A DNA stretch of 64,000 nucleotides from Blasia pusilla (GCA_050084515.1 CM114271.1:9300001-9364000); one strand, 5' to 3'. Shown: positions 8,785 to 64,000, counted from the first letter of the stretch. Notes: generated by a model from the letters alone, not told the origin. Numbers and translations: made by a program.

Positions 8785-11700
8785 AATATCAACATCTATA
8801 TCCCATCTTCGCAAAACACATACAAATTTGCTTTTGACGGAATCTTGATGAGACCCTTCTCTCGGAATAATATATCTATTCGTTGATACCATACCCTTGG
8901 GGCTTGCTTCAACCCATACAATGCTCAATGTAGTAAACACACCTTCTCTTCTGATCCGGGTGTCTCAAAACCTGGTGGTTGAGATACATACACCTCCTCC
9001 TTGAGACTCCCATTCAGAAAGGCAGACTTCACATCGTATTGGTATACAGGCCAACGTCTTGTTCTTGCAACCGCTAGAACAATTCGAATGGCTGTCATCC
9101 TTGCAATAGAAGAAAAAGTCTCATATTAGTCAAAACCTTTTATTTGTGAGCATCCTTGTGCAACCAACCTCGCTTTGAATTTATCCAATGTACCGTCCGA
9201 CTTGTACTTGGTCTTGTACATCCACTTGGTGCCTATTATCTTCCTGTTCTTTGGCTTCTCAACCAAAGTCCAAGTTTCATTTCTCTGAATAGCATCCATC
9301 TCCATCTGCATGGCCTCTCTCCATTGAGGATGAGCAAGGGCCTCATCCAAGCATGATGGCTCTTCCATATTCAAGATCTCTATCATCAAGGTCGTGTTGA
9401 CGAGATGTACGGAAGCTCTATTATGCTCCTCTAGTATCCTGGATCTCCTTGGATATGTAACAACTTCATCAATTTTTGGTGGATCCTTACCATCCAAGAG
9501 CTGCTTTATCCACTTAGGGTATGACGACTGTAGTGGAAGAGCATGGTGCTCTTTGTAACCATCACCAAATTCTTCTTCTTGATGATCTAGTGTAAACATT
9601 GGTGGTGTGCTCTGTTGGGTTATCTCTTCGTTTGATGATAATGTGGACGGACCACTCATATCCACCACTTGACGAGGCTGTTCCCTGAACACCACATCAC
9701 GACTCACAAGCATCTTCTTTGCCTCAAGAGACCATAGGCAATAAGCTTTAGACTCATCATTGTATTCCATAAAGATACACTTCATGCTCTTGGACTCCAG
9801 CTTGGTCCTGCATGCTTCAGTAATATGTACAAATATCTGAAATGTTGGACTGATGGTACCTTACATGAGTATGATTGATGAGGATTCATGCCTTGCACTG
9901 ACTTGGTAGCACTTCTATTTAGAATGTAAACGGCAGTGTTAACAGCTTTAGCCCAAAATCCTTCTGTCAAACCTTTTGCTTTCATCATACATCTTGCCAT
10001 CTCCACCACTGTACGGTTTCGATGCTCAACAACTCTATTTTGTTGTGGTGTATGTACCATGGTTAATTGTTGCTTGATTCCATGCTCCCCCAAAAATTTG
10101 TTGAATTCTGTTGATAAGAATCATCCTCCTCGATCGGTGCAAAGTTTTTGTACCTTCTTTCCTGTCTCATTCTCAACCAACTTATGCCATACTTTAAATT
10201 TTCCAAAAGCGCTTGCCTTATCACGAAGGAAATACACCCACATCTTCCTACTATAATCGTCGACAACGAAAGAGAAGTAGAAAGAACCACCTAATGCCAT
10301 TGTTCTCATTTTACCACAGAGGTCAACATGAATAAGCTCTAGAGGAGCCTTTGCTCTATTTTTGGACTCTTGTGGAAATGATTGTCAGTATTGCTTGCCC
10401 ATCATACAAGCTTCACATGTATCCGACACTCAAAAAATTGTTGGTAAATCAACAACCATGCCAGATTTTTGCATCTAACTTAGTAAGGGAAATCTTAGGT
10501 GACCATATCTTTCATGTCACAACTTACTGCTACTAAGATCTATACCTACACTTGTCGTGAAAGCATACAACTCGTAGATATTTCCATGTCGTATACCTTC
10601 ACCCACTACTTTTCCATTGGCATCCTCAATGACTGCTCCAGTTTTCTTGAAACGAAATTCTAGGTCACGATCACATAATACTACTATTGAAATCAAATTC
10701 TGCTTCAACTCTAGTATGTACAGTACATCAGTTAACTTCTTTTTATCTCCTTTTTGTGAGACTAAAGAAATTGTGCCTTTCCCTTCTACAGGGCACTTTG
10801 CATTATTCCCAACAGTAGCAACGATGGGCTCCTATAGAGGCTGTAAGGAGCTATACCAATCCTTATGATTGGTCATATGTCTAGATGCTCCACTATCGAG
10901 CCCCCATGCATCTTCACTCTTTGACTTAGTGGAATGTTCTGCCTGCGTGAAAAACTCTCCGATTGCTATCCAAGCATCTACTTCATATTCTCCTAGTTCT
11001 ACAGAATTTCTAGACTCCTTCTTAGGTCTTAAACAACTGTTCTTCTCATCCAGACTCCTCTTTCTACAATCTTTGATAAGATGACCTAGCTTGCCACAAT
11101 AAAAGAATTTGAAGGCTTTCATTGGGAATTTCTTCTTGACATTTGAACTGTAATCCTGATTTCTACCTCTTTGTATGTTGGCAATAAATGCTGCATCACT
11201 TCCCTCTCTTGCTTTGAAGCGCATTTCCTCTTCTACCAACATTGCACTAAATTTTTCAAAAGTAAGCGGCGTGGGTCTTACTTGAGTATTCAATGAAGTG
11301 ACCAAACTGTCATATCTTGGAGGCAAAATCCTTATGCACCAACCTGCCAAATCTTCGCTAGAGTTTGAAATTCCTACGGATGCCATCTGATCTTGAAGAT
11401 TCTTGATCCTTGTCAAAAATTACTCTGCGCTTTCTCCTTCTGAAAATTTCTCGGACGTAAGCTGATTCTCTAGATTCTCCGAGTCTCATTCCTCCTTTCA
11501 TACTGACTCTTCATAATGTTCCACGTCTCAGCAACAGTGGTTGTATGTTGAATGAGAGTCATGAGAAAATCAATTATATTCGTGACAATCGCATATAGAG
11601 CATCAGCGTTTTTGTGTTTCCATGCCAACAATACAACAAGATCGATATCACCAGATGAAGATGAACATGCCTGCCACAAAGTAGCTTATGGATTCGAATT

Positions 11701-34010: not shown

Positions 34011-36573
34011 ATCGTGGATCATAAAAAACGAGTACCCACTCCGATCCGTGACGAGTCAGATTCAGGTAAGGCTCAATTCCTGTCTTCAGATAGTATATCT
34101 CCGTTGTTTTTGTCTTTGAGCAACCCGTCGGAAGGCGACGGGTTGCTGGCTTAGAGCATCCCATGCTTGGATGAGAGCAACCCGTCGCTTTCCGACGGGT
34201 TGCATCTTTCCCTGAAACATAGGTAAAACGCCGGTGTACCTGCAACCCGTCGGAACCCGACGGGTTGGAGTTGCTTATGGTTTTTCCCTGTGTTTCTGGA
34301 AAGCTGCAACCCATCGGAAAGCGACGGGTTGCTCTCAGCCAAGCATGGGCTGCTCTAGGCCAGCAACCCGTCGACTTCCGACGGGTTGGTCATGGACAAA
34401 ACAACCCGTCAGACTCCGACATGTTGCTCCAATGTTAGTATTTGAAAAAAGTTCTCTAGGGTCAAGCGGAGTTCTTTGGTGACGTGTTGCACATTATGCC
34501 AAGTTTTTGACATTCTTTCCAACGTGCTTCTTTACAGATGGACCACTCCTACGTTTATTGCTTCGTTCGGCCCGAGCACAACTTCCAGGTGTTGAAGATC
34601 CAAGATCCTATGGATCCATGCTCAGATAAGTACAGCTTAGATAGTTTGTACAATTCCCCCCGGGAATTTACATGCAAGACGGTAGCCCACTTCTGGGAGG
34701 AAGGGAAAAGTCGCTAGCCTTGATGAAAACGCTCATCGAGCTCTGCTCAAGGCCGGCTGACTTGGTGTTCGACTTAGTGGGACTTTCAGGGGCAAGTATC
34801 AAAGGCGCCTCGCAGAGTGGCAAGAACATTCTCTGCTTCGAGGGAGGGCAGGAACTGTTTGACCTTTGCAAGGAGGCAAAGACATAGTACGAAAGGCTCG
34901 TTGGGACGTACAACTCTCCACCGAAGCCGAGAGTTCGGTTGCAGACCCACCATTGGTAGTGACACCATCGTCACTTCCAACGATTCCGAAAATCGAGAGG
35001 GCAAAGCCGAAAGTAATATTGCAAGAGCTCTCGCACGATGACGAGTGAGTTCAAAGAACTCAAGGACCCAGCTTGACTGCAGCGTTTGGAGTAGGGAGCT
35101 ATTTGATGATGAGGCAAAAGATTTCATAAAATAGATCAAATGTACAATTCCGAGCTTTTTTCGGATGTAATAAAGGAGAAGATTTTTTCGAACGATGGTG
35201 GTGCTTGTAAAAGTTTGCTGAAATTTTTTTATGTCTTTTCGAATGTGATCGTCTATGAACTCTGCGGACTTCTATTTTGCAACCCGTCGAATTTCTCCTG
35301 CTTGCAACTTTTCACTTTTTGACCACTGCACCTTTTTACCACTTCCAGGCAGCCTGTCGGATTCCGACAGGTTGCCTGATCGGACTCTTTCCCTGTTGGT
35401 CAAACTTAAGAGCCAGTCTGGCGGGCTTCTTCACTTTGGCACCTTCCCCTCAACTCGTAAAAGCAGGCGTAGGCTTCTTTTCTTCTCTCAGACGTGTTGG
35501 ATTCCTACTACCTGTGGGATTGCCATCATGGTATTACCAAGGACGAAGCACATATTGATACTGGATGGGTGTCACATTGTAGAGCGTACAAGATATACTG
35601 TCAAGGAAGGCGTTGGGACTCAAATCAGGTTACATACGACCGTTATGGTGTACCTAGGGGGGGCCAAGGCTCTCGAATTCGCCAAAATTTTTGATCCCCG
35701 TCTACAATCGGCCAGAGGAGCCACTTTGTATCCCAGGTCATTCCTTTTGTCCTGGAACCTAGGAGAGTTAGGAGTAAATTTGTAGATGACGAGGCTGAAG
35801 AAATCATAGACTAGGTCAAATGTACATTTCCGAGGTTCCTTCGGAGGTAATAAAGGATGAGATTTTCTCAACCGATAATGGTGTTTGTAAAAGTTTGTTG
35901 GAAAAATTTTTGGACTTGTGGATTGTGTTCTTTTAGCTACTCGGAATTACAATTTTGCAACCCGTATGATTCCGACGGGTTGCAACTTCAAGCTTTTTGC
36001 CCACTGCAACTTTTTAACCATTTCCAGGCAAGCTGTCGGATTCCGACAGGTTGGTTGCTTGAGTGATCGGACTCTTTCCCTGTGAGACCAACTTCTGACG
36101 CATTGTGGCGGGCTTCTTCTTAACATTTGGCTCGTTCCCCTACATTTGTCAAACCAGTTGTAGGCTTCTTTTCTTGTCTAAGATGTGCAGGATTCCTACT
36201 ACCTGTCGGATTGCCATTTCGGATTCCCAACCTGTTGGATTTTTGTGGGTGCAGGGTGGAAGGAAATCACTTCTAAAAATCTTTCCTTTCTTATGGTGAG
36301 CTTTCTTACGGGTTGGGAGGGGTGCAGTTTCTCGGTTTCTCAGCTTTAGGATCTGAATGAAGGGACATCAGTTCCTCTTTACTCCGGACAGCTAACAATC
36401 TTTTGGTTCAATTATTGTCTCATGTGTTCACATTTCACAAAGTTGGTCTTGAGCAGACACCACTCATAATCAACAGAAATTTGGTTATGGGGCAATTCAG
36501 GGGAGGCCATGATGCAGGCAAAAATCCTTGCAAAAAGAGAGGTTGGCATCGTACCGATGCGCATCCGAGTGGT
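34010..36573 (+). mobile_element. ParB-MTase element copy E (last intron, last exon from 34538, 3' region); terminus resumes at 46326-46654
   Basis: Colinear with ~3110-5580 and 6275-6470. Interrupted by the Gypsy at TGGT, continues TGGTCCTCCAACAAAAATACC at 46326 and ends GAATACCAGCCCCC at 46654. Confidence 0.85.
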
Positions 36574-37156
36574 TGTCGTGCGAATCCACATCGTCATACA
36601 ACATACATCGCTGACATACCATACGCACATACATACATAACATAGACGAGAGTATCCACAAACGCAAGTGTACCACAACTGAAATCCGTGAAAGACCTAC
36701 TGTCATAAAACACGTTTACAATCACATACAATCGAGCCAAACCCACTCCACGATGGGAGAATCTAGGTCAAAGCTTGCGGGAAACACCATAGCCAAGAGC
36801 TCTACTCACTACCAAGGCTAACTCCCAACGCAACAGACTCAACTCAAAGAACTGACTGTTCTTTGAGGGCAAGCCACCTTATATCCTCCAACCTAAGAGC
36901 GGGCCCTACTAGGAAAGTCACCCCCAACTGAGTAACCCCCAACCCTATGTATGGAACCACATCTCTACCAAGCCACTATGGTCCTACATAAGGAATGGCC
37001 TCTACCAGCACACCATACTCTACAAAATAATCCGTATGGTCATGACAGCTGTCGTGCGAATCCACATCGTCATACAACATACATCGCTGACATACCATAC
37101 GCACATACATACATAACATAGACGAGAGTATCCACAAACGCAAGTGTACCACAACT
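36574..37156 (-). repeat. 3' repeat block Y-X-Y: Y 37050-37156, GC spacer, X 36681-37047, Y 36574-36680
   Basis: The two 107-bp Y copies read identically; the 367-bp X matches 45959-46325 with only a few substitutions. Confidence 0.92.
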
Positions 37157-37324
37157 CGCCCCCTAATCGGCGGTTAGGTCCTCTAACTCCAGGTAGCCCT
37201 ATACATCTACTACATGCTATACACCTTCTTGGGTGCTCGAATCAAGGCCGGGTGCTAGGTTGCCCCATCGTTAGTCGCACATCTGTAATCCATATCATGC
37301 AAAGATCAAGTCATCTACCTCTCC

Positions 37325-37470
37325 TAAGTACATCGAGGACAAACCCACCTTCCAAAGAGGGAACAACATCCAAACGTGAGTCAAACACATCATGTGCCAA
37401 CCCCTAGAACACCGATCACACACCAACATACGGGTTGCGTTACGTGAGACCCACACAACATGCACCTCAA
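37325..37470 (-). pseudogene. PHD finger at the integrase C-terminus
   Basis: Reading across small indels gives CMLCGS..RNATRMLVCDRCSRGWHMMCLT.LDVVP..GRWVCPRCT*, a C4HC3 pattern. Confidence 0.82.
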
Positions 37471-40400
37471 GCTAGCACGTATCATGGCTAAGCTTGGATC
37501 AACAAAGACCATCCACATTTGGAAGATGACATGGCGCACAATTACGCACATGGTCCTTCCAAACAACTCCATCACGACCCTCCAACATGAGAACTCCGAA
37601 GCTAACACCTCACGCACTCGTAAAATAGTGCGGCTGCCGTCACATCCAACGTTGTCGGGCAACTGCTGCAAATAGACATAGTCCCCACATGGAACCTACT
37701 TAATCGATGGTCGATAACCTCCACTGAATGGTTGCATACCGCAACGTATCCCCTGTGTTGAGCAATGGCAAGATTCTCAAAGGCCGTTGGCATAACTCTC
37801 GAAAGAGCTCCGCTTGCCGAGAACACACCCTCATCCACATCTCGGGTCATCAAGGTTCACCACCTCACTAGACTCCCGATTTAATTGCCGGCAAGTCCGG
37901 ATCTCGGCCGTATAACATAAAATAAGGTGAGAAGGAAGCCAAGGATGCTTGGCGATCGAACCTATACCCCATGGCTAACCATGGCAATCGAATATCCCAG
38001 TCTCCAAGATGCCCTTCAGAGGCCATACTTGCGCAATGCCCTCTTCACCGTCTGAACCACACGCTCAGCCAAACCATCCGCCTCTGGATGATCTCGAGAC
38101 GTGGTCCGATGATCAATCAACGCCTTGTCACACAAGACCTGAAACTCACCCTCAAACTCTGTACCCTGGTCGGTCAGCACTTCAGCTGGTGCACCAAAAT
38201 GACTAAGCACTCTATCCACAAACGCATACGCCGTTCCCTCACTCGCCTTGTCCGGTAATGCCACCAACTCAATCCACTTGGAGAAGTGCTCCACCATCAC
38301 CAACACATATCGATGATGTCGTACAATCAACGGTAACGGTCCCGCAAAGTCCACACTCCAACGGTAACCCAACCCCATAATAGGAAAGGGGTGTAATTGT
38401 GGTGTAGGGGCATTAAATGATGCCCTCACCCGATCACAAACCATACAACGTGACACCAACTGCTGCACCTGAGTATGCATGCCACGCCACCAATACTGGC
38501 CAAGGAGTAAGCTATACGCACGCTTTACCCCAAAATGTCCCAACTCCTCATGGGCATGTCGCACAATGCGCTCTCTCTGAGCCAAATGTGGCACTACTCA
38601 GTACTCTACCATCCTCCCACACGCGGAGAATATGTGTTCCCTCCAATCGATACCTCTTAGCACGTTGAAGAACACGGTCTCGCTCCTTGGCACTCACTAT
38701 GCCTGGCACCCTACCGGTCAGAGGAACTTCAACACCAACGCATCATCATGAATATCATGCTGATCCGTACCACCATCTCCAACCTTAGGATCTCAAGGTG
38801 GCCATCTACCCTCGACTAGAGTAAGATATCATGTGGTCCTCCATACTAGAGTCCACCTAACCAACATAAAAGGCGGATGCATGCCAACCTGGCACCATCT
38901 CCTCATCAACCTCGCCATGCCATCTAGCCTGTTGTATCCTCTTGGCTAGTACATGGGTTCCTACTCAACCCATCAAAGATCAAGGTTGGCAACTCCAGGT
39001 CTATGTACCACCCGGAAGTCATACTCTGTAAGATAAGAGCCCACCGTGCAAGCTTCCCCTGTAAGCTTGTCCGACTCCATCAACCACTTGAGCGGTTGGT
39101 GATCAGAATAAGGGTAAACGGGTGCCAAACAAGTAACACCTAAAGTGTGCCACCCACACCTCTTGCCAAGCACTCTCCCTCATATGAACTATAGCGCAAC
39201 TCCGCTGCATTATTCGAACGACTTGCATAGGCCACCACAAACTCCATGTGCTCATCATCATGTTGTGTCAACACCGCTCCAAGTCCCAACCTACTCCAAT
39301 CGTGTGTGTAATCGAAATGGGCGCCCTCGATAGGTCTCCTCAAGATAGGCGCCGCCACCAACTGGGCCTTAAGCTCCACAAAAGCTCTCTCCTAATCATC
39401 TCCCCAGTGCCACTCTTGATCTGATTTCAGCAATTGGTTCAAAGGCTTTGCCATAGCACTAAATCCCTTCACATATCTCCGATAGTAGTTCGCCAATCCC
39501 ATGAATGCTCGAACTCTACTCACATCTACCGGACGCGGAATAAGTGCAATAGCCTCCACCTTTGCTTGCTGAACTCCCAAACCACCTGGATAGATCACAT
39601 GACCCAAGTACTCAACATCCTCATGGAAGAACTTACACTTCCTGGATACTAATGTAGACCATGAGCTTTCAACCGCTCAAACACCATCTGCAAATGTATC
39701 TGATGCTCCTCCACCGTGTTACTGAACACCAAGATATCATCAATGTAACACCGAACAAAATCCAACCCTGCTAGGATCCTGTCCATCACTCTTTTAAAGT
39801 CGGCAGGTGCATTCTTCAACCCAAAGGGTAAGAATTTCCACTGGTACAAACAATCCTTGCCATGAGAGTTGACACCCTAAAATGTTGTCTTGGCCTTGTC
39901 ACTCTCCCGAATCGGCAATTGATGGTATCCTACCCGAAGATCCAAAGTACTGAAAATCTTTGCTTGTCCCACCACATCAAAGATCTCCTCAGGTGTAGGC
40001 ATGGCATACCTATTGGCGTTGGTTTGCCGATTGATAGGACGGTAATCTCCACACATCCGCCTATCCGTGTAGTTGCCATGCATATCCTTTTTAGCAGGCA
40101 TGACAGTGGCTGATGCATACTCTCCATGCGACAACTCCACTAATCCAGCCTCCAAAAGGTCCAACGTCCTACTCTGAATCAAGTCCCTCTCCATATCACT
40201 ATATTGATAGGGACGACGGAAGATTGGCGTATCACTAGCCAAATCAATCCGTATACCGGGTCCGACCAGAGAACCCAACTCCTTCATGCTAAAGGCAAAA
40301 AAACTCCTATAAGCACGTAGGAACTGTGTCAAGCGTCGTTTCTCACCTCCCGTAAGCTTGGGCCCAAGTAATGGCTCCCAAGTCTCCTCCACTGGCATAC

Positions 40401-40669
40401 TAGAGGGAGAGGACGATGCCATTGGCTGCCACGCAACCCCCTCACAAGATGGTACACCCTTAGCTACACCATCATCTGAGCAAATAACTCCTCCACCAGC
40501 ATGAGCAACCAACTCCACATGCCCAGCCATTACATCCCATTTACTCCAAGGATGCAAAATACTACTCTCCTCGCCCTCAGCCGATGCCTCTACCGTCCCG
40601 GTAGCCATCGAGCTCATTACAAGGGGTGGAAGACCCACAGACATAGTCCGAAGTCGACGCTGCTCGGCC

Positions 40670-41640
40670 ATACCAAGACTCAAAATCCAAGTCAAACAAT
40701 TCACTCCATGGCTGACCCAACACATGACGTCGTGAAGCCTCGAAATAGAAGCAACGCATTTGTCACACCAAGAGCAAATCCCATCGCACGCTCTCTCTCA
40801 TCAGCGTTAGGCTCCACCAATTTTCGCACATGAGAATCCCATACAAGCCCCGGACCACCTTCCCTGCAGGCATGTGACGAGGGAAAACTCACAAATGTGG
40901 GTAGTGCCATCCTAGGCTGGCCCACACGGTTCACCACTGCCATGGGTGACCAATCAATAACCCTCACCACTTGAGAAAGTCGCCAAAGATATCCAAGATA
41001 CTATCCCTTTGTAAAGGCGAGGATCCCGCCTGACTTTGCGCATCATATGCTCGACGTAGAACCTCCCTAGGCAACAAGTTTGTCCACCACAAGCGTGGAC
41101 GATGTGCACGCGAGCCAACTCACGCTGCATCCAACAACACCGCTGGTCCAATCCAAGAGCGCACCTCATGAACACTCGCCATCATCCGGGTCCGAGTGTC
41201 ACCCAACAATGGAACATTCTCCAGAATGTAAGCTAGAGCACGTGCCTGATGAACCTGAAGATGTCGTAACATCCGTAACATCTCCCAAAACAATCGAGAC
41301 CTAGGGTCATGTAATCCCTCACCCCGACCAAAGACGTGTATGACCACGACATGGCCATCCAAAGAATCACCAAATCCACAGGACCAATTCTCTCAAGGTC
41401 CTGCGCCTTCAACAATGCAATGTGTGATGGTAAAGCACGCTGGTACCCACGAATAGCCGATGGCGGCAACAACTCAGGGTATCTCGCATCAATCGACCAA
41501 TATGTCGAGATGAGACTCGGGCCGTCTCATCTCGCTCCACATACACGTATCTCCCTTGCACAGAATACCGGCCTGCAACATGAAGCCAAACCAGTGCTAA
41601 TCCCACCAAAGAGATCTAACACACAAATACCCTCCGCGGA
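40670..41640 (-). pseudogene. Cytosine-5 DNA methyltransferase domain (DNMT3/DRM-like) inside pol
   Basis: Motifs in order: I VLDLFGGISTG; IV GPVDLVI.GWPCRG; GLHDPRSRLFWE; VI YILENVP; VIII VGSRAHRPRLWWTNL; IX EPNADERERAMGF; X RRHVLGQ. Confidence 0.9.
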
Positions 41641-44600
41641 TCTTGCCATACAATAGGTGTAGTATCCAAAGGGGATAACCTAAGCTGGGCGAAGTAGGAG
41701 TCGTGTGGGGCCTCCTCTTCCTCGTGAGGTATAATGACCTCACACCAAGCCTCTGCACTAGGCGATCGACCTCTGCCGTAGTGCACCGCTTTGAACTCCA
41801 AAGTGGCACATCCAACGATGAGGATGCCTTTGCTGCAAAAATAGGGACCTCCTCTTCCTCCTCATGCGCAGGAGAATCCAGCGTAAAACATTACCCTCCA
41901 AAAGTCTCTGGCCAAGTGACTACTCCACTAAAACCACCACGCAGATGATGCTAACATCTTTGTGGGGAAGACCCTCTGGTCGAGCCCAGAAATAAATTTC
42001 ATAGGAACTTGGCTCATACGTCCATCCTCGGATCGCCAACCTGGTCTATAAGATTTGTCTCGATCCAAGTAATCCATCGAAAACCCATCGGTACAATCGC
42101 TCCTCCAACTAGTACATCATACGACTGGCCGATGTGACTACCATGAATACTCCCAACGGGAGCTATCGATCGCATGATCTGGTCTCAATCAGCACAAAAA
42201 CTTCTCCGTGTCATGAATTGAGACCTATCATTGGCTCCTCCAAGTGATGTTTGAACTGGAATGGGCAAGGCTCAAGCTCGACCTCCGAATACCCAAACCA
42301 ATACATGCCGCCTTTCCCAACATCAAAGGTTGGGCACCGAGTCTAACAAGACTCTATCCGGTCTATACACTGCCTGTAGGACTCACCAATCGGAAGATCC
42401 CTCCGGTTGTCCAACATACATACACCGGTGTAAGCCTCTCACGATCAATGGCTAGCCGGGCCGGTAATGCATCCATCTTCGCCGCCGCCGCCAAGTAGCA
42501 CCGGGTACTCAATGCTACTCGACATAGAGGGTCGCTCCACCGCAACACCCTCATCCACCTCAACACGTGTAACGAAGAATACCCCACGTTCACACAACGT
42601 GTTCGCTAATCAAATACAGGAGCTAAGTCAACTCCTAAAGCCATCGCCTCGTGGCGAAAACAATGGGGATCCCAACACCGGTTGCCATCCGCGCAATCTT
42701 TTGCATTGATCTTTGCATCCGTGTCTACTACACGCAATGTAGATGCCTCGGTCCCCCTTTGTCGGCTCAATAGGTCGCGAGGAACCATGGATGGAGTCCT
42801 AAGCACCTCAGACAACACGAATGATTGGGGAAGCCTAGCTCGCCTCCCAGCCTCACCCCTCTGTGGGTCCAACTCACAAGAGCACCACGTGGCTCGACGC
42901 CGAGTGGCTCTCTCTCGAATCGCACTGATGCCTCAACTTTTGTCTTGCACTCGCCATATAAGAGAGATCATCCTCCATAAGAGGTGGAAGCCCCTGCTCC
43001 CGAACTCCTGATCTATCTTTGGATACCGACCATAGTAGCCAACTTCGCTCCAATCTGCTCAATCCGGCAGCCATAGGCGACTTGTCGTAGTGGTAGGGGT
43101 AGCCACCGTGAGGCTCTCCAACCACCTGGTCCACCTCTACCACCCCTACCACCTCTACCACCTCGGTCTCTCGGAGCTACTCCACCACGGCCACGGCCTG
43201 ATCTCAACTCTGGATGGAGATCAAAGCAACGCCTCGACGATGACCTAGTCTCCCGCAATGATCACACTGAGTTGGGGCCGACGAGGCCCATCCTCCAAAG
43301 TCCGTCTCCCATCCTCTTGGGGACAAAACTTCCTAACATGATCACCTCCACATGTCCAACATGATCGCCCTGCTGGGGCAGCAAATGAAGGCAATGGTCT
43401 CTGCACAAATGTCCTCTAGGACTTGACTGAGGTCGCGTGTACCCCACGACTCCCACTACTACTACCACCACCACTACTACGAGGCGTGAGGTGGGCGGTG
43501 AACCAGAAGTAGTAGTTGTATCCCCTCATTGAATGCGGATGTCACCACTCTCTCCTTCACCATGTTAAGCTCAATCTTCTCAGATAAAGCAAACACATGG
43601 GTCAATGTGGGTGAATCATCACTCATAAGAGTAGCATCACGTACCCTACGGCGCAAATCTCTGTCCAAGATCCCGTATTAAAATCTGGATCGCTGATCCT
43701 CAGTCACACCTTGGGTAATCTGAAATCAAGCGCCGATATGCAGTGTATGCCTCACGAAGACTCTCACCGTCTTTCGCTCAAAGTCCTAAAGATTCCTCAA
43801 CTTCTCTGTCTTCACTCCTGATAGTTCTTCTTCAACCTCTTGAAGAACTCGCAACTGGCTGAACGATGGTGGGGCACTAGTACCTCCACTAGTACCCCCA
43901 CTAGTACCTCCACTGGTACCCCACTCAAACTTGTACTGCATTACCACTCAACGTCGGGTGGCCTGGCATAGTAGGAGCACTACTACCAATACCACCATGG
44001 GTGATAGACACATAGCCTGGAGACCAATATTGTCTCCATGCCTCAATCTCAACAACATGGTCCTTCCTAAACTCATGGTAATCATCCATGGGTGGTCCTT
44101 CCAAGTCTTTGAAACAACCCCTTCCAAGCCAAGAAGGGTGTAAACAACGCGTGGCGTTCAACATCTACATATCACACCACGTATCAAACTCTTGCATGAA
44201 GTCCTCCAACTCAATGGTGCCCATCGCACCGAGTATCGTCGTGGGCCCTTCATGGCCCCATATCCACCGTCCATGTCCCAAATCAATGGAGCCGCAACAC
44301 TCGATAACAACGTAGAAGACTCGGTGTTTGGAACACCTGGTCCTCCTCTTCATCAACCGCTCGGAAGTGGAAAAGGTAGCCGATACCTAAATCCATTCCG
44401 TGTGAAACCACCCCTTTATCCGCACCACGGTCCCCAACCGGACCACTCGGCGACTCGTGATGACCAACGCCGATGCCGCACCACCACCAAATTACCCAAG
44501 TGACGTCGATGTCGCTCTACTATTGTAGCTCTACTAGCTATGGGTGTAGGCAATCTAACCTCTCATCACCACAAGAAGTCTCCCGTCTCATCTGGTCATC

Positions 44601-45958
44601 ACTCCGGCCTCACTATCGTGAGAGCACACAGAGTAACACTACTCTCGGAAATCAGCGTCAACCCTAACAATGGGCGCAAGCAAGCAAAAGCACGATGGAG
44701 GGGATCCATACAGGAAGTCCAACGACAACCCTCCAACCGCAAATGGAAATCAAGGTAACACAATCCACCAAACGTGGTGCCCCCGAATCCACAAAACCCA
44801 CCACACAATTCTAACGCAATAGCTACTCCGCCGCGGGTCGATGACGTGCTAGTCGAACTCGCATCACCTGAAAATATTACTTGCATGGAGAGGCTACACC
44901 GTACTATGCGCTAGAGGTACATCAACCAAAAACCTGAGATGCATAAAGCGCCTAACACATCTCCGAACAGCACCAAATGAGCTACAACAACAGACACCGG
45001 CATAGTTAAGAACTCAAAGATTAAGCGTCCTCCAGCGAGAATAGCCCAAAGATGGGTGACCAATTATGCAAAACTCAAATCCCAAATCCTGCAAAAATTG
45101 CCTCATGCCCAAGCAAGCAAGCTTGCTTGCTTGCTCCTTGCTCCTTACTCCGCCTCTCACGCCCACTCGCCCCGAGCTACCACGAGTTGCCTCGAAGCCT
45201 CAAAATGCTCGAGACATGCCCCGTTCGCCACGCTTCGCCATGCTTCGCTATGGAGAGAGGTCCAACCAGGCGCCCCAACGGGATAGGCGTCTCAAAAATG
45301 AACGAAGTCACCAACCAACCAGCCCCTCCGATCCGGCTGCCCACCATAGCAGACCTCGAGCTAGTCCGCAAAATTTCGATCAGAAATTACTTCACAAATA
45401 CGTGACCGAAATCAAATCTGTTTCAATCAGAATTCAATTGACCACCATATCTATCTCTCCACAAAAAATCAGCTACAACCGAGCTCTGTACTCCGAGCTA
45501 AAAATCAAACAAACTTTTGTCCATACACCTCGAATCGCAAAATCCGCGGCGCTTCCGCCAAGTTTCATGCACGCAGAAATCCGCAACGCTCCACACACTC
45601 GAGCAGATAGATTCAGAGGAGATCACAATACGAGTAGCAACAGGAACCTCTCACCCGATCTGGATGAACTTCAACACAACTTCCGCACTCCAAGCTCTCC
45701 ACATCAGAAAACTGTCGAACACGACCAGAATCTTCAATGCTTGATAACTTCCAACTCCCTTGACGAAATCCGGCGATCTATAGCGCGTTGGAAAGCTCTC
45801 AGCAAGGCTCTTCTTTCCCAACCAAAGACTCACCAGATTACCACCTCCAACATAGGCCACAAGACACAAACATCCACGGCTGAGTACACAATCAGCCCTA
45901 ATCCGATCCTACTGATCTACAATCGAAGCTACCATCGATCTACTCCAATTCTTTGAGT

Positions 45959-46325
45959 GAAATCCGTGAAAGACCTACTGTCATAAAACAAGTTTACAAT
46001 CACATACAATCGAGCCAAACCCACTCCACGATGGGAGAATCTAGGTCGAAGCTTGCGGGAAACACCATAGCCAAGAGCTCTACTCACTACCAAGGCTAAC
46101 TCCCAACGCAACAGGCTCAACTCAAAGAACTGACTGTTCTTTGAGGGCAAGCCACCTTATATCCTCCAACCTAAGAGCGGGCCCTACTAGGAAAGTCACC
46201 CCCAACTGAGTAACCCCCAACCCTATGTATGGAACCACATCTCTACCAAGCCACTATGGTCCTACATAAGGAATGGCCTCTACCAGCACACCATACTCTA
46301 CGACATAATCCGTATGGTCATGACA
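45959..46325 (-). repeat. 5' terminal repeat X of the DNMT-Gypsy
   Basis: Starts TGTCATGACCATACGG on the minus strand; matches 36681-37047; not followed by Y or by a recognisable PBS. Confidence 0.9.
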
Positions 46326-46654
46326 TGGTCCTCCAACAAAAATACCCATGGGCGCTGCTTATTGTAGACCGAGACAGGTAATGTTAAGAAACTTAGGCTC
46401 ACATGGAGAGTGATGGAAAATTTTTTGTAGTGGTCTTATGATGTCTACTTTTTTTTCGCCCCTAGGAAAAAGGAGGTTTCTTTACGGCCAAATGTGGACC
46501 ACTACCTACTCTCTTCTAAAGATTTCATGAATTTGAAAGGAAACAAAAATTTCAAATATGTCAAAAAGTTTTGAAGAGAGGAGGCGGATTTGGCCCTTTT
46601 TTTTTTAAGAGAGACTCTCCTCTCTTACTCTCTCCTGCCAGAATACCAGCCCCC

Positions 46655-48033
46655 TCCGAACAGCACCAAATGAGGTACACCAGTGTGTACACTGACATAG
46701 TTAAGAACTCAGCAGTTAAGCGTCTTCCAAGCAGAATAGCCCAAAGATGGGTGACCAGTTATGCAACACTCAACTCACAAATCTAGCAAAAATTGCCTCA
46801 CACCCAAGCAAGGAAGCTTGCTTGCTTGCTCCTTGCTCTTTGCTCCTTACTCCGCCTCTCACGCCCACTCGCCCGGCGGTACCACGAGTTACCTTGAAGC
46901 ATCGAAACTCCGAGACATGCCCCGTTCGCCACGCTTTTCCATGCTTTGCTATGAAGAGAGGCCCAACTAGGGCGCCCCCAACAACATAAGGCATCTCCAA
47001 CAACGGACGAGTCACCAACCAACCAGCCCCTCCAATCTACTGTCCACCATAGCCTGACCTTGTGCTAGTGCGCAAAATTTCGATCAGCAATAACACCACA
47101 AATCCTCAACCAAAATTGAATATGTTTTCACCATAATTCAATAGGCCACCATAGCTATCTCTCCACAAAATAATAGCTACAACCGAGTGGTGTACTCCGA
47201 GCTAAAAATAGACAAACTTGTTGTTCATAGACCTCCAAAATCGCAAATCCGACAGCGCTTCCGCCCAAATTCATGCACACAGAAATCCGCAACGCTCCAC
47301 ACACTCAAGAAAATATCTTCACGTGAGATCACAATACAGGTGGCAATAAGAACCTCTCACCCGATCTGGATGAACTTCAACAAAGATTCCGCACTCCAAG
47401 CTCTCCACATCCGAAAACCGTCGAACACGAACCAGAATCTTCAATCCTTGATAACTTCCAACTCCCTTGACGAAATCCGGAAATCTAAAGCGCGTTGGAA
47501 AGCTCTCAGCAAGGCTCTTCTTTCCCAACCAAAGACGCACCAGATTACCACCTCCAACATAGGCCACAAGACACAAACATCCACGGCTGAGTACACAATC
47601 AACCCTAACAAGATCCTACTGATCCACGATCGAAGCTACCATCGATCTACTCCAGTTCTTTGAGTGAAATCCGTGAAAGACCTACTATCATAGAATCACA
47701 TATAGAATCACATACAATCAAGCCAAACCCACTCCACGATGGGAGAATCCAGGTCGAAGCTTGCGGGAACCACCATAGCCAAGAGCTCTACTCACTACCA
47801 AGGCTAACTCTCGACGCAACAGGCTCAACTCAAAGAACTAACTATTCTTTGAGTGCACTCCACACTATATCCTCCGACCTAAGAGCGGGCCCTACTGGAA
47901 AAGTCACCCTCAACGGAGTAATCCCCAACCTTATGTATGAAACTGCATCTCTACCTAGACACTATGGCCCTACATAAGGTACGGCCTCTACTAGCACACT
48001 ATACTCTACGACATAATCCGTATGGTCATGACA
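46655..48033 (-). mobile_element. Second, more diverged 5' fragment of the DNMT-Gypsy family (X repeat plus leader)
   Basis: Colinear with ~44962-46325; ends CATGACA at 48033; cut at 46654 by the DNA-element terminus. Confidence 0.88.
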
Positions 48034-50459
48034 GAGAATGTCATTGGTTGAGATTACTTCTCCATCATGTTCAAGGAGCAATGACATATGAATATCTGAG
48101 AATTGTCAATGGAATATTATGTCCAACAGTCAAGGAGGCTGCTATCCAAATGGGACTTCTGGAGGATGATAGGGAAGTGTTCTCTTGCTTTCAAGAAGCT
48201 TTTATGATCCTTACAAGTTCGTCACTTCGCCGTATATTTGCAATCATTCTAGTGTACAACACACCTGCTCAACCTACAACCTTATGGACTCAATTCTTGG
48301 ACCCATTGGTAGAAGACCTCTTATATGAACAACGTAAGGTAAGAGTTCATTACCTTCACTCCTTACATCATTAGTTTTCTTCCTAATTGTATCATCTTTT
48401 GAGCATTCAAGAAACTAATCATGATTTGGGCTTTTCTAGACCGGTTGCATTGTAGAAAACATGAATTCCTAATCTTCCTATTGATGACCATATCATTAAT
48501 AATGCATTGTTGGAAGTTCATTATTTATTTACAAGATCAAGGAAAGAGACTATCTCACTTTCGTGACAAATGCCCAAAGTTAATTTCCAAAGCCTTCACT
48601 CACATTCATATTTGGAGGAGCAAGAACTATTATATGATACGGAAGAATTATTTGAGCAAGTAAAATTGGGAGATACATGTCTGAATGAAGGACAACGTGT
48701 TATTTAGGATGCTATACATGATGAGCTTGATCAAATATGCATAAATGCTCCACCATCTTCAAAAGTATTTTTCATCAATGGTCCTGATGAAACAGGAAAG
48801 ACATTTCTATATAATCTTCCCCTTGCAAGCGTAAGGAGTGCAAGAGGTATAGCATTGGATGTAGCATCATATGGAATAGCTGCTTTATTGTTAGACGGAG
48901 GACGTACTTCACATTCGCGTTTCAAGATCCCCATCAATCTTCATGAGAGCTCTACTTGCAAGTAAGTTTCATCAACCACTTTACATGCAATTGTATTAAT
49001 GCATAAAGCTCAATTAGTCCAATTATTACAACTTCTAATTTATTTTCCTTTGTCATTGATAGTTTATTAGTCGATAGTGATGGAGCACGCTTAACCCGTG
49101 AGGCAATGCTCACTATATGGGACAAAGTACCTATGACTCATCGTCATGCATCCAAGGCTGTGAATCGTACTTTACAAGATATTATGGGACTTCTTTCTGA
49201 TAATCTACGGCAAATACCATTTGGCGGAAAACTTATGATATTTGGTGGTGACTTTTCTCAAGTGTTGCCAGTTATTCGTCATGGGGACCAGCCACAAATC
49301 ATCCAAGCTACCATAAAGAGATCACCTATTTGGTCTAATGTAAAGGTCATGAAGTTGACAACCAACATGCGAGTTCAAAGGTTGGAAGGTCATTTGTGTG
49401 TTGAACGACAAGGTTTTGCTTATTGGTTATTGGAAGTGGGCGAGGGTCGTGTACCTTTGCATCCAAATTTGGGAGAAAAATTACCATCTGAAATTGTTAC
49501 TGATAGTAATAAGAAATCTAACCTTATTGATTTCATCTATGGCAATTCTCCTAGCCAATTTTAGGACATTGGGTTCTTAAGAGATACAGCTATTTTGACT
49601 CCAAGAAATAGAGACGTTTATGACATAAATGCATATGTTATGTCTCAGTTTCCTGGACAGGTAATCTCTTAACCTACATACATCTTCTACATGGATTTTT
49701 TTCTCTTAGGCTTTAGGGTTTAGGATTGTTTTACTGACTATCTTTACTAATACATTATTGTTTCTCACGAATTCATTACACATTGTACAAGAGCATATTT
49801 ACCTTAGCATCGACTCTATTCCAAATGAGGGGATGAGTCATATCTATCCAATGGAATTTTTTAATACATGCTTGCCTTCTGGACTACCTCCGCATCGTTT
49901 AAACATGAATAGGTCACAAGGACAAGCACACAGGATGAGATTGGTGATTCTTGGAGTTATGCAACATTGTCTAGATGGCGAAATTATTATCGGGAAGAAT
50001 ATTGGAGATCGAGTTTTTATTCCACTGATTCCATTGATTGCATCGGATTCTGGTTTGCCATTTGATTTACGTAGGTTTCAATTCCCTATTCGCCCAACTT
50101 TTGCTATGACTATTAATAAGTCTCAAGGTCAAACTTTGCAAAATTTTGGCATTTACTTGCCTACTCATGTATTTTTTCACGATCAATTGTATGAAGCATT
50201 ATCTAGAGTAGGGAAGAGAAGTTCCATCCACATTACCCTTGGAAGCGATGAACATTCAAATAAGGACGGTGCCTACACACGAAATGTAGTATATAAAACA
50301 ATACTTGAATGAAATAAAATTTGCAATTATATTACAGAAACACGAGAGTGTTGGAAATAGAAGGAGGCACGATCATGAGTGAACATGAAAATCTCTTCAC
50401 TAAACAGTAACTCTTCAAACAAATTGTTTTTCCTGTGCATCGCACGGGCACCTTACTAG
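48034..50459 (+). mobile_element. Autonomous Helitron remnant (PIF1-type helicase exons, 3' hairpin, CTAG)
   Basis: LRLLLHHVQG, decayed Walker A FFINGPDETGKTFLY, IWDKVPM, FGGDFSQVLPVI, KLTTNMR, FAMTINKSQGQT; introns present; 3' CCTGTGCATCGCACGGGCACCTTACTAG|T. Confidence 0.92.
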
Positions 50460-58657: not shown

Positions 58658-61600
58658 TGTTGGATTCTCAACATCCACTTCTCTGAGCACCATTAATCTG
58701 ATCGAACCCCTTGTATGAGGAGAAGCCTAGATTGATGGTTTCGATTTAGACGTTGAAGGAGTCATAGTAATATGACGTAGGTGGTTTTAGGAGTAGCGTT
58801 ACTAGGATTATCTAACCCTATATTGCATCAGGGTGCGGAGCATCCTGATGCAAAATTTGTCTATTAATAGAAACAAAGAAAATTAGATAAAAACCCCTAG
58901 TTTCCCAAGTAGTGAAATAGTTCGGAGCCGCAACGGTAGCACATTCTCGTATGTTGAGTTATCTCCATGTTCACGTTCCATTGAAGCTCTTTTGTGAGCG
59001 CACGGACGGACTAGGCCACTTTGTATCTCTAAGTTTTGTAAAGATTTCAGTGATTTCGTCACTTTCTATTTTCTCACATGGTATCAGAGCAGTAGGTTTT
59101 CCAATATTTTATATCTGGCGATCTGGTGTGTTTGCACAAAATCTTGAGAGGGCTACTTCTTTGTCAGTTCGTGCTCACCCTCCTCCGCTGGGTGAAGGGA
59201 AGTTAGATGGGTCTAACTATACATTGTGGAAGTTCAAAATGATGACTTTCCTCGAATCATTTGAGATCTGGGAGAGGGCCACATGGGTCAATTCGAATCC
59301 ATAAGCTACTTTGTGGCAGGCATGTTCATCTTCATCTGGTGATATCGATCTTGTTGTATTGTTGGCATGGAAACACAAAAACGTTGATGCTCTATATGCG
59401 ATTATCACGAATGTAATTGATTTTCTCATGACTCTCATTCAACATACAACCACTGTTGCTGAGACGTGGAACATTATGAAGAGTCAGTATGAAACGAGGA
59501 ATGAGACTTGGAGAATCTAGAGAATCAGCTTATGTCCGAGAAATTTTCAGAAGGAGAAAGCGCAGAGTAATTTTTGACAAGGATCAAGAATCTTCAAGAT
59601 CAGATGGCGTCCGTAGGAATTTCAAACTCTAGCGAAGATTTGGCAGGTCGGTGCATAAGGATTTTGCCTCCAAGGTATGACAGTTTGGTCACTTCATTGA
59701 ATATTCAAGTAAGACCCACGCCGCTTACTTTTGAAAAATTTAGTGCAATGTTGGTAGAAGAGGAAATGCGCTTCAAAGCAAGAGAGGGAAGTGATGCAGC
59801 ATTTATTGCCAACATACAAAGAGGTAGAAATCAGGATTACAGTTCAAATGTCAAGAAGAAATTCCCAATGAAAGCCTTCAAATGCTTTTATTGTGGCAAG
59901 CTAGGTCATCTTATCAAAGATTGTAGAAAGAGGAGTCTGGATGAGAAGAACGGTTGTTTAAGACCTAAGAAGGAGTCTAGAAATTCTGTAGAACTAGGAG
60001 AATATGAAGTAGATGCTTGGATAGCAATCGAAGAGTTTTTCACGCAGGCAGAACATTCCACTAAGTCAAAGAGTGAAGATGCATGGGGGCTCGATAGTGG
60101 AGCATCTAGACATATGACCAATCATAAGGATTGGTATAGTTCCTTCTGACCTCTCTGAGAGCCCATCGTTGCTACTGTTGGGAATAATGCAAAGTGCCCT
60201 GTAGAAGGGAAAGGCACAATTTCTTTAGTCTCACAAAAAGGAGATGAGAAGAAGTTAACTGATGTACTGTACATACTAGAGTTGAAGCAGAATTTGATTT
60301 CAATAGTAGTATTATGTGATCGTGACCTAGAATTTCGTTTCAAGAAAACTGGAGCAGTCATTGAGGATGCCAATGGGAAAGTAGTGGGTGAAGGTATACG
60401 ACATGGAAATATCTACGAGTTGTATGCTTTCACGACAAGTGTAGGTATAGATCTTAGTAGCAGTAAGTTGTGACATGAAAGATATGGTCACCTAAGATTT
60501 CCCTTACTAAGTTAGATGCAAAAATCTGGCATGGTTGTTGATTTACCAACAATTTTTGGAGTGTCGGATACATGTGAAGCTTGTATGATGGGCAAGCAAT
60601 ACTGAAAATCATTTCCACAAGAGTCCAAAAATAGAGCAAAGGCTCCTCTAGAGCTTATTCATGTTGACCTCTGTGGTAAAATGAGAACAGTGGCATTAGG
60701 TGGTTCTTTCTACTTCTTTTTCGTTGTCGACGATTATAGTAGGAAGATGTAGGTGTATTTCCTTCGTGATAAGGCAAGCGCTTTTGGAAAATTTAAAGTA
60801 TGGCATAAGTTGGTTGAGAATGAGACAGGAAAGAAGGTACAAAAACTTTGCACCGATCGAGGAGGAGGATTCTTATCAACAGAATTCAACAAATTTTTGG
60901 GGGAGCATGGAATCAAGCAAAAATTAACCATGGCACATACACCACAACAAAATAGAGTTGTTGAGCATCGAAACCGTACAGTGGTGGAGATGGCAAGATG
61001 TATGATGAAAGCAAAAGGTTTGACAGAAGGATTTTGGGCTAAAGTTGTTAACACTGCCGTTTACATTCTAAATAGAAGTGCTACCAAGTCAGTGCAAGGC
61101 ATGAATCCTCATCAATCATACTCATGTAAGGTACCATCAGTCCAACATTTCAAATATTTGTACATATTACTGAAGCATGCAGGACCAAGCTGGAGTCTAA
61201 GAGCATGAAGTGTATCTTTATGGAATACAGTGATGAGTCTAAAGCTTATTGCCTATGGTCTCTTGAGGCAAAGAAGATGCTTGTGAGTCGTGATGTGGTG
61301 TTCAGGGACCAGCCTCGTCAAGTGGCGGATATGAGTAGTCCGTCCACATTATCATCAAACGAAGAGATAACCCAAGAGAGCACACCACCAATGTTTACAC
61401 TAGATCATCAAGAAGAAGAATTTGGTGATGGTTACAAAGAGCACCATGCTCTTCCACTACAGTCGTCATATCCTAAGTGGATAAAGCAGTTCTTGGATGG
61501 TAAGGATCCACCAAAAATTGATGAAGTTGTTACATATCCAAGGAGATCCAAGATACTAGAGGAGCATAATAGAGCTTCCGTACATCTCGTCAACACGACC

Positions 61601-63669
61601 TTGATGATAGAGTTCTTGAATATGGAAGAGCCATCATGCTTGGATGAGGCCCTTGCTCATCCTCAATGGAGAGAGGCCATGCAGATGGAGATGGATGCTA
61701 TTCAGAGAAATGAAACTTGGACTTTGGTTGAGAAGCCAAAGGACAGGAAGATAATAGGCACCAAGTGGATGTACAAGACCAAGTACAAGTCAGACGGTAC
61801 ATTGGATAAATTCAAAGCGAGGTTGGTTGCACAAGGATGCTCACAAATCAAAGGTTTTGACTAATATGGGACTTTTTCTTCTATTGCAAGGATGACAGCC
61901 ATTCGAATTGTTCTAGCGGTTGCAAGGACAAGATGTTGGCCTGTATACCAATACGATGTGAAGTCTGCCTTTCTGAATGGGAGTCTCAAGGAGGAGGTGT
62001 ATGTATCTCAACCACCAGGTTTTGAGACACCCGGATCAGAAGAGAAGGTGTGTTTACTACATCGAGCATTGTATGGGTTGAAGCAAGCCCCAAGGGTATG
62101 GTATCAACGAATAGATATATTATTCCGAGAGAAGGGTCTCATCAAGATTCCGTCAAAAGAAAATTTGTATGTGTTTTGCGAAGATGGGATATAGATGTTG
62201 ATATTTTTCGCGCCCCTACTCTCCTTGAACGTCAATCTTTAGTGTTGCGGAAGCGTGCGTTCAATAGGTCACGAACTCATGGCCGATCTGCACCCAAACA
62301 CGCACTCTCATTAGTCGGGTTTGGCCAACCGGCGTTCCAACCCACCGAGTCCTCAACTCGGCGTCTCATCAAGCTCAACCTTCCTTAGTTCCTAGCTTCC
62401 AACACATGCCAAGTCCTTCAAGACTTGGAACGGACTTTCTAGTTAGTCCAAGTATTTGAAACGGCACTTGCGCGCCTAGCGATCCCAACTGTTCAATGGT
62501 CCTCGGGTGAGTTCCAAACCGAGACCCAAGTAATTGAGTCGTGGGGTGGAATCCAAGAGGGATGTCTAAAATCGCCTCACTGGACTTGGTGCAGGTTTTC
62601 CAACCCAACCCCCAAACTCGCGTTCTGTTCCATGCCCTTGAGCCGCCCCGCGGCGCCCAAAGTGGGGTTTGGGTTCCAAGCACTCTCGGAGACCTTCCCC
62701 CTTACTAGTACTTCTGGGGTTCTCCAATAACCCTTCCCCTTTAGGAAAAGAGGGTCGGGCCCTTCATTGTGGCCCTCAACCCGACTCCACTTACAATCGT
62801 TTTCGGATCGTATCTCAGCCATTGCTTATGTGTTTGCAGAGATCTTTGGTGCGTTTGGACCGGCTCTCCATAAGCTTTCCAATGCACCCTTATTTGCTCC
62901 AAACGCATCTTGGCGCTAAAAGTTATGGCCATAAATACAGTCGGAAACTCTCAAACGCTAGTGGCGTTCCACATCTGGATCTTTCCTTTGGCAACCCACT
63001 TCCTAGACTCGACTTCTTTCAAGTCTCATTCCGTGTTTGGTCCAGGTTTCTCAGTCGCGACCATAACACCTGAAATGCGACTCCTCGCTCGCGTCTCGTC
63101 TCTTGTCTCCTCTTTGAGACAACTCCAACACGCAAACCATCTTAACGTGAGCCTGCTAATGTTCCGATGTTCCGTTTGGCACTTGTTTGGTCATGAGGGT
63201 CGCGACAATATTCTTGTATGTGGATGATCTGATCATCACAGGAGACCACATTAAGAAAATAGAGGAAATGAAGGGAGTGTTGAAATATGAGTTTGAAATG
63301 TCAAATTTAGGTCTTTTGCACTACTTTATAGGGCTGGAGATTTGGCAATAGTCAGATTCTATTATTCTCTCTCAGCAAAAGTATGCTAGAGAAATCTTGA
63401 AGGCATTCGGGATGATCGAGTGTACGGAAATTGTCTCGCCAATGGAGGTAGAGTTAAAAATCTTGATGGAGGATGTTTCACCATTGGTAGATGAAAAGTT
63501 GTACAAAAAGCTTGTAATCAGTTTGATATTTTTGTGTAACACTAGACCAGACATTAGCTTCGTTGTGGGAGTGTTGAGTAGGTTCTCAACTAAGCCTTGT
63601 GAGAACCATTCGAAGGTAGGGAGGCGTGTGTTGAAGTACATCAAAGGAATTATCGAGTACGGCATCACC
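58658..63669 (+). mobile_element. Ty1/Copia retrotransposon (5' LTR 58658-59078, PBS, gag-pol; 3' truncated)
   Basis: PBS TGGTATCAGAGC 59079-59090; CFYCGKLGHLIKDC; LDSGASRHM; integrase; RT YDVKSAFLNG, LYGLKQAPR, LYVDD (just after the solo LTR), TRPDISF. Confidence 0.94.
62206..63207. mobile_element. Solo LTR inserted in the Copia RT
   Basis: 5-bp TSD ATATT (62201-62205 and 63208-63212); removing it restores MLIFLYVDD. Confidence 0.92.
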
Positions 63670-63728: not shown

Positions 63729-64000
63729 TGTCATGACCATACGGATTATGTCGTAGAGTATGGTGTGCTAGTAGAGGCCATTCCTTATGTAGGACCGTAA
63801 TGGATTGGTAGAGATGCGATTCCATACATAGGGTTGGGAGTTACTCAGTTGGGGGTGACTTTCCTAGTAGGGCCCGCTCTTAGGTTGGAGGATATAAGGT
63901 GGCTTGCCCTCAAAGAACAGTCAGTTCTTTGAGTTGAGCCTATTGCGTTGGGAGTTAGCCTTGGTAGTGAGTAGAGCTCTTGGCTATGGCGTTTCCCGCA
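63729..64000 (+). mobile_element. Start of an X repeat of a third DNMT-Gypsy family copy, running off the window
   Basis: TGTCATGACCATACGGATTATGTCGTAGAG... is the reverse complement of the 46325 end. Preceded by ~60 bp resembling 25736-25822. Confidence 0.88.

Follow-up and report, generated by a model that had tools for sequence, protein, structure and literature searches.

A Ty3/Gypsy element with a DDE integrase, split direct repeats and a predicted self-priming site in the genome of Blasia pusilla

A stretch of 64,000 nucleotides from the genome of Blasia pusilla (GCA_050084515.1 CM114271.1:9300001-9364000), hereafter the window, harbours at positions 36574-46325 a Ty3/Gypsy retrotransposon whose direct repeats are split instead of forming a pair of long terminal repeats (LTRs). 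Positions are counted from the first nucleotide of the window and the element is read on the minus strand, its coding strand, so that its 5′ end has the highest coordinate. In this direction the order is ACCA, X, leader and internal region, polypurine tract, Y, the dinucleotide GC, X, Y and again ACCA. The 5′ repeat X (A1; 45959-46325; TGTCATG...GGATTTC(A)) and its 3′ copy (A2; 36681-37047) are each 367 bp long and identical in 362 of the 367 positions, with five differences. The internal Y (B1; 37050-37156) and the terminal Y (B2; 36574-36680, with the 3′ end ...CGCACGACA) are each 107 bp long and identical throughout (107/107). A single A at each boundary of the X|Y type (45958, 37156 and 36680) can be assigned either to X or to Y. 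The end of the internal Y, the GC (37049-37048) and the start of the following X together form the palindrome ACAGCTGT (37045-37052, equal on both strands), and the polypurine tract AGGGGGCG (37157-37164) adjoins the internal Y on its 5′ side. The termini of the element are TGT...ACA with an inverted match of 6/7, and no further Y is present within the window.

The arrangement of these repeats, their lengths and their places are as given in a preliminary description made from the sequence of the window, which had also placed a 4-bp target-site duplication (TSD) around the whole unit. The TSD is ACCA, at 46326-46329 on the 5′ side and at 36570-36573 on the 3′ side, and is evident both from the sequence and from the joints of empty sites. 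Contigs from four public sequencing runs were aligned to positions 36200-46700. In contigs from two DNA runs belonging to different studies, position 36543 or 36550 was joined straight to 46326 with 1-11 diverged letters between. These contigs represent paralogous, uninterrupted copies of a host repeat and contain one TGGT/ACCA where the window contains two; 36574-46325 was therefore inserted as one unit with a target duplication of 4 bp. The Y-GC-X and X|Y joints were both found in contigs of other runs. One contig of 408 nt spans the X|Y joint at 36680/36681, and a contig from a run of another organism has GCACGACAGC ahead of the X start. The family is extremely abundant, with 246,534 contigs from one run aligned to the same 36200-46700 interval.

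The sequence in which the element is nested (36200-36573 and 46326-46700) is itself highly repeated. Beside the insertion site the window copy has a 15-nt duplication, GTACCGATGCGCATC, relative to the uninterrupted paralogues. Two contigs of run X12 differ from the window element internally. One of them passes from 37686 to 44195 through 31 other letters and suggests a derived form of the family that has undergone internal deletion and is possibly non-autonomous. In the other, the sequence upstream of 39172 consists of 171 unrelated letters ending in ...GGGCACGACA; these seem to represent the Y-type 3′ end of a further copy inserted in the RNase H region of a family member.

The coding content was determined by a Pfam scan of ten minus-strand open reading frames (ORFs) of the window and of six ORFs of a relative, L008, from the metagenome loci described below. 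In the window element pol contains, in this order and all on the minus strand, a reverse transcriptase (RVT_1, 39649-40065, found in 39649-39876 and in the end of the ORF 39877-40797, with a stop at 39876/39877), RNase H (RT_RNaseH_2, 39140-39391) and a DDE integrase (Integrase_H2C2 and the rve core, 38016-38597) whose translation retains D, D and E; L008 has the identical order. Upstream, a gag remnant with a CX2CX4HX4C zinc knuckle (43245-43415) was recognised from the translation and had no Pfam match. Between gag and the reverse transcriptase lies a decayed C5 cytosine DNA methyltransferase region spread over several frames (40701-41679), in which PF00145 matched 41120-41392 with 17.9 bits (cut-off 22). 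A remnant of a PHD finger follows the integrase at the C-terminal end (37295-37471; 21.6 bits, cut-off 24). Both additional domains score higher in L008, where one reading direction contains DNA_methylase (37.8 bits), RVT_1, RNase H, Integrase_H2C2, rve and PHD (40.4 bits). No tyrosine recombinase was matched by Pfam in the ten window ORFs or the six L008 ORFs. These matches support the assignment of the window element to the Ty3/Gypsy elements with a DDE integrase, as proposed in the preliminary description, which had overlooked the methyltransferase and the PHD finger as well as the polypurine tract before the internal Y and the self-priming site.

Two other copies of X are present in the window. 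A second, truncated copy (48033-46654, minus strand) consists of X and approximately 1 kb of leader and is 87% identical to the element over 1385 alignment columns. It has the same junction between X and the leader, where the predicted primer site lies, and contains no Y, and so bears out the independent copy reported earlier at 46655-48033. The third X (63729-64000, plus strand) continues past the end of the window and has an unrelated 5′ flank. All three X 5′ ends adjoin unrelated sequence, without Y-GC upstream. The third X seems to be inserted in the second of two Ty1/Copia fragments (SH3_retrovirus, RVT_2), which are located at 9129-9860 on the minus strand and at 61130-61861 on the plus strand. 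An ORF on the plus strand at 49007-49561 contains a PIF1-like helicase domain (114.7 bits) and may belong to a Helitron-like element.

Among named proteins the nearest are those of Sphagnum, Marchantia and Calypogeia, and several of them join PF00145 with reverse transcriptase and RNase H, or rve with PHD. Metagenome contigs were scanned with an alignment of ten such proteins, which gave 401 encoding stretches, and 80 loci (L001 and onwards) were kept. The methyltransferase part of L008 matches proteins of Sphagnum, Calypogeia, Marchantia, Closterium, Chromochloris and Monoraphidium and, distantly, of Klebsormidium nitens. The Y-X-Y 3′ end was found in the window copy and in 17 loci, corresponding to about 15 independent elements, since L060, L061 and L064, and likewise L073 and L076, are probably the same loci assembled twice; in L026 the terminal Y is internally deleted. 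At the 5′ side, neither a Y upstream of X nor an X-Y-X start was detected in any of 21 ends (18 loci and the three window copies, with L073/L076 and L039/L047 as possible duplicates). In 19 other loci (about 16 independent) the polypurine tract is followed by Y alone and then by unrelated sequence, and five of the six such loci that are complete have perfect TSDs. L024, L027, L046, L052, L058 and L059 were left out of these 3′-end classes. On a tree of the reverse transcriptase and RNase H region, comprising 80 of 81 sequences (L033 was left out, and pieces were joined for three loci), the loci of the form X-internal-Y are interspersed with those of the full form, branch support aside.

Among the 13 elements complete at both ends, ten have a perfect 4-bp TSD and three (L050, L061 and L021) have one mismatch. 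The perfect TSDs are ACCA in the window, AAGG in L039, TCTC in L004, GGTC in L008, CCAC in L026, TCAT in L012, ATTA in L013, TACA in L014, CATC in L075 and TGTG in L009, the last being called with the second base of X taken as substituted. The form X...Y-GC-X-Y with a 4-bp TSD is thereby supported as a property of the family and not an accident of this locus. The missing Y at the 5′ end is likewise not a one-off deletion of a 5′ LTR, in agreement with the preliminary description, and conventional XY...XY elements are absent from the 5′ ends sampled. Some relatives contain tandem repeats of 110-170 bp upstream of pol (L016 at 1199-1565, L022 at 167-535, L024 at 117-485 and L073 at 218-528). The contig end of L001 (9200-9317) is very GC-rich and unlike the remainder of the contig, which may be chimeric.

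The dinucleotide between the internal Y and X was GC in nine, AC in seven, AT in one and GT in one of 18 listed elements, and all 18 junctions would fit an ancestral ACAGCTGT worn by transitions. Even in the distant clades of L001, L002 and L005, in which the remainder of X and Y cannot be aligned, the sequence ...CACGACA-(GC/GT)-TGTCA... is kept behind a G-run and a spacer of the size of Y. Each of the 18 listed elements has a G-rich purine run immediately ahead of its internal Y. The polypurine tract thus precedes Y and not X, and the predicted self-priming site follows X, so that the replication signals frame Y-GC-X rather than the integrated ends. Insertions and deletions abutting a joint were found at X2|Y2 in 4 of 15 elements and at neither Y1|X2 nor the joint of polypurine tract and Y1, small numbers throughout. 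They are 17 additional nt together with 3 nt of the purine tract in L004, a loss of 2 nt in L016, a gain of 6 nt in L025 and the loss of the first part of Y in L026. Error-prone end joining would give this confinement to X2|Y2. Substitutions pooled over six elements amounted to 124/1908 (6.5%) between X1 and X2 and 48/796 (6.0%) between Y1 and Y2 (Fisher p = 0.73); the divergence of the two pairs is equal, and both pairs are therefore taken to be renewed from one template in each transposition cycle.

The bases that follow the 5′ X point to the manner of priming. In the window, X contains a TATA-like box, TATAAGG (46155-46161, minus strand), with a putative promoter function. The transcript 5′ end predicted from this box, AGTTCTTTGAGT (46120-46131, minus strand), would serve as self-primer, and the predicted primer-binding site ACTCAAAGAATT lies directly after X (45947-45958, minus strand). 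The two sequences, 46131-46120 and the primer site, form 11 Watson-Crick pairs and one G-U pair. More generally, a segment of X approximately 30 nt downstream of the TATA-like box is the complement of the 10-16 bases that come after the 5′ X. Of the 12 positions expected to pair there, 10-12 formed Watson-Crick pairs in 15 of 20 sets of X and leader. The pair count was restricted to 12 window-type sequences because a joint alignment of both subfamilies misaligned the columns of the primer site. Pairing extends to 90.8% of the alignment cells in these 12 rows and drops to 28-49% if the partner is shifted by 1-3 columns; 9-15 of 500 shuffles attained the observed score or paired share. Compensatory changes occur at two pairs, UA to CG twice and GC to AU twice. 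The second subfamily has at the same position a wholly different complementary pair, AATTCTAGAAAAAC with GTTTTTCTAGAATT.

RNA folded from the predicted start to a point 18 nt beyond X has its first 12 nt (in the window sequence) or 15 nt (in L008) paired with the primer site in the minimum free energy and the centroid structures alike, with z-scores of -1.9 and -3.8, respectively. No tRNA gene was found within the window, and no Rfam family matched in 36000-48500. The lack of a recognisable transfer RNA (tRNA) primer site is most likely explained by self-priming similar to that of Tf1. Priming independent of tRNA had been raised as a possibility beforehand, and the conserved and covarying pairing after the 5′ X now argues for it. 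The predicted primer of the window-type X has a second complement, CTCAAAGAAC, immediately upstream of it (46131-46150, minus strand), and the two could fold into a local hairpin. In three old relatives deletions fall precisely on this hairpin, and the second subfamily is without the upstream arm.

Reverse transcription ordinarily yields a complementary DNA (cDNA) that begins, on the left, with the base following the polypurine tract and finishes, on the right, with the base preceding the primer site. With the polypurine tract before Y and the predicted primer site after X, the reverse-transcribed repeat should therefore be Y-GC-X. The integrated ends would consequently lie at the palindromic centre of this repeat, and the genomic copy would be a circular permutation of the expected cDNA. 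The preliminary description had seen in the internal Y/X junction the right end of the element joined to its left end, as in a circle. The palindrome is present as described, and its reading as the joint of the cDNA ends is at odds with the replication signals, which would make X|Y that joint.

Our hypothesis for the route by which the permuted copy arises is as follows. Transcripts would begin within X and, as in Tf1, would use their own 5′ end as the primer for the minus strand. The cDNA then produced by reverse transcription would have the long terminal repeat Y-GC-X, in which U3 would consist of Y and the 5′ part of X, and R-U5 of the 3′ part of X. The integrase would bypass the ends of this cDNA and use the TGT/ACA ends at the palindromic centre of the Y-GC-X repeat, its putative substrate being the palindrome-bearing sequence ...CACGACAGCTGTCATG... 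inside the repeat. To arrive at the inserted copy, the two ends of the cDNA would be joined, making X|Y the U5|U3 joint, and the molecule would be opened within the left repeat, at its palindrome. Such opening, with loss of the GC, would convert the closed Y-GC-X-internal-Y-GC-X into X-internal-Y-GC-X-Y, and the opened molecule would be inserted by a DDE reaction duplicating 4 bp. We lean towards the reading that these elements form an old Ty3/Gypsy clade of green plants, with a Dnmt3-like methyltransferase and a PHD finger, integrated as X-internal-Y-GC-X-Y by way of a permuted, end-joined cDNA. The specific proposal that the clade inserts permuted cDNA through the action of its DDE integrase on a palindromic site in the middle of the repeat, in end-joined or otherwise junction-bearing cDNA, is put forward tentatively.

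Several observations weigh against this reading. About half of the relatives are of the form X-internal-Y without the terminal X-Y; they may have been inserted in this form, have lost the tail later by Y/Y deletion, or reflect the collapse of repeats in short-read assembly. A symmetric circle with two LTRs has two identical palindromes, and a cut at the other one would give X-Y-GC-X-internal-Y, which was seen in 0 of the 21 5′ ends. Random cutting of such a circle is thereby ruled out as a full explanation, and the missing X-Y-X starts call for an asymmetry, such as a special left site, or for a different route, such as a tail made by template switching. Pairing at the expected place is missing in five of the 20 sets of X and leader, namely L004, L014 and L050 with deletions over the site, L011 with substitutions and L040 with an unrelated leader. 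The window copy itself is dead, as its internal region contains many stops and frame changes. Finally, the permutation is deduced from genomic copies, and the circular or junction-bearing cDNA and the transcript ends are predictions.

The alternative that survives best dispenses with the circle and attributes the layout to reverse transcription alone. A linear cDNA extended by a right-hand Y would result from one more change of template, such as a jump of the plus strand from the right end of the cDNA to the left, and the integrase would trim the left end internally. This would account for the extra repeat being on the 3′ side alone, as in the 21 5′ ends sampled, and it agrees with the equal divergence of the X and Y pairs and with the imprecise X2|Y2 joints, template jumps also being error-prone. 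No sequence feature pointing to such a switch was found, however, and an internal cut at the left palindrome would still be required; we regard it as unlikely, if worth keeping in mind.

The basic unit could instead be X-internal-Y without terminal repeats, derived from a circle with one repeat or from a linear cDNA cut at both palindromes, with the X-Y tail as a rarer by-product. The 19 loci of this form, the perfect TSDs of five of the six complete ones and their interspersed position on the tree favour such a unit. RNA from such a copy would, however, be without a 3′ R, and the first strand transfer would therefore be impossible. The loci in question also come from short-read metagenome assemblies, which can collapse Y-X-Y, a Y/Y deletion would yield an identical product, and the young window copy is of the full form. 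This explanation is accordingly considered improbable.

A conventional element with X+Y as its LTR, altered by local rearrangement, by tandem insertion of a mini-element or by mis-assembly, has in its favour that X+Y carries TGT...ACA ends with the 6/7 inverted match. It is very hard to reconcile with the recurrence of the layout in other assemblies, where about 15 independent relatives have TSDs of their own, with a polypurine tract and a primer site that are not adjacent to X+Y, with three X 5′ ends without Y in the window and with contigs from other runs that contain the Y-GC-X and X|Y joints. A tyrosine recombinase acting in trans, suggested by direct repeats split as in DIRS, PAT and Ngaro (PMC4157794), is scarcely credible given the lack of any tyrosine-recombinase match in the ORFs scanned in the window and L008, and is contradicted by the 4-bp TSDs, the TGT...ACA ends and the conserved DDE integrase.

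The window element shares with Ty3/Gypsy elements the order of pol, the TGT...ACA termini and a short TSD. It differs from them in having no two identical LTRs as its bounds: its 5′ end is X alone and its 3′ end Y-GC-X-Y, as in about 15 relatives. The elements of the DIRS, PAT and Ngaro types are not known to duplicate their target site on integration, whereas the clade described here has TSDs of 4 bp. Split direct repeats in the order A1-ORFs-B1-A2-B2 define PAT, Ngaro and related tyrosine-recombinase elements (PMC4157794). The window element resembles PAT, Ngaro and TOC1 in these repeats; those elements have a tyrosine recombinase and no DDE integrase, whereas the present clade has a DDE integrase, TG...CA ends and TSDs.

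Self-priming is known from the Gypsy elements Tf1, sushi and Tcn1, and Neumann et al. predict it for the Tcn1 clade of mosses and club mosses (PMC6317226). The present clade resembles these elements in having no tRNA primer site and in the complementarity of the transcript 5′ end, here a predicted one, to the bases after U5. They differ in having ordinary paired LTRs, and chromoviruses have a chromodomain where the present clade has a PHD finger. A methyltransferase is not mentioned in the available text of that survey of plant LTR elements. The integrases of foamy virus and HIV-1 have been reported to cleave the palindromic LTR-LTR junctions of 2-LTR circles (PMC1905944, PMC1180852), which resembles the DDE integrase acting, as it would in the present clade, on an internal palindrome holding both ends. 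In retroviruses, however, the cDNA ends meet at the palindrome, and cleavage there regenerates the normal linear DNA, whereas the palindrome considered here lies inside the repeat and its cutting would give a permuted copy.

The closest precedent is KnitGypsy-Dnmt3 of Klebsormidium nitens, for which a figure legend describes repeats arranged as in DIRS together with the domains of Gypsy (de Mendoza et al. 2018, PMC5890265, Fig. 4c). As in the present clade, a Dnmt3-like methyltransferase is located inside pol of an element with Gypsy domains, and the repeats follow the order A-coding-B-A-B. The host is an alga, whereas the closest named proteins of the present clade are from Sphagnum, Marchantia and Calypogeia. 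A PHD finger is not mentioned in the main text of that paper, and its passages on the element are silent on TSDs, a palindromic junction, a primer site and a polypurine tract. A K. nitens protein matched the methyltransferase part of L008 with E = 1.5e-28 and 34% identity over 52%, a similarity that does not link the protein to the ORF of KnitGypsy-Dnmt3. A methyltransferase in a Gypsy pol is present as the sub-cut-off remnant in the window, above the cut-off in L008 and in many homologues that combine PF00145 with reverse transcriptase. Among titles and abstract openings on split repeats in Gypsy elements with an integrase, or on bryophyte retrotransposons with a DNA methyltransferase, no account fuller than the 2018 paper was found. 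A Gypsy element bearing a DNA methyltransferase and DIRS-like repeats has thus been noted in print once before, in an alga, and self-priming was known, which limits the novelty implied in the preliminary description; the window element is a bryophyte-like case. Newly described are the TSDs, the conservation of the palindromic junction, the placement of the polypurine tract, the predicted self-priming site and the proposed permutation of the inserted copy relative to the cDNA.

Split direct repeats are usually taken as a hallmark of tyrosine-recombinase retroelements. Their presence in a widespread and old Gypsy clade together with a DDE integrase and TSDs means that the layout is independent of the recombinase. 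Programs that search for LTR elements by paired repeats with an adjacent primer-binding site, polypurine tract and TSD would mistake X...X for the LTR pair and misplace the 3′ boundary, and a very abundant family of this genome may be mis-annotated. With replication signals that frame another unit than the one inserted by the integrase, the clade is suited to testing an internal palindromic site in a normal integrase cycle. If the proposed route is true, insertion of a permuted copy would be the DDE counterpart of the integration of DIRS and Ngaro elements, and the clade may represent the type of Gypsy ancestor that gave the tyrosine-recombinase retroelements their repeat layout.

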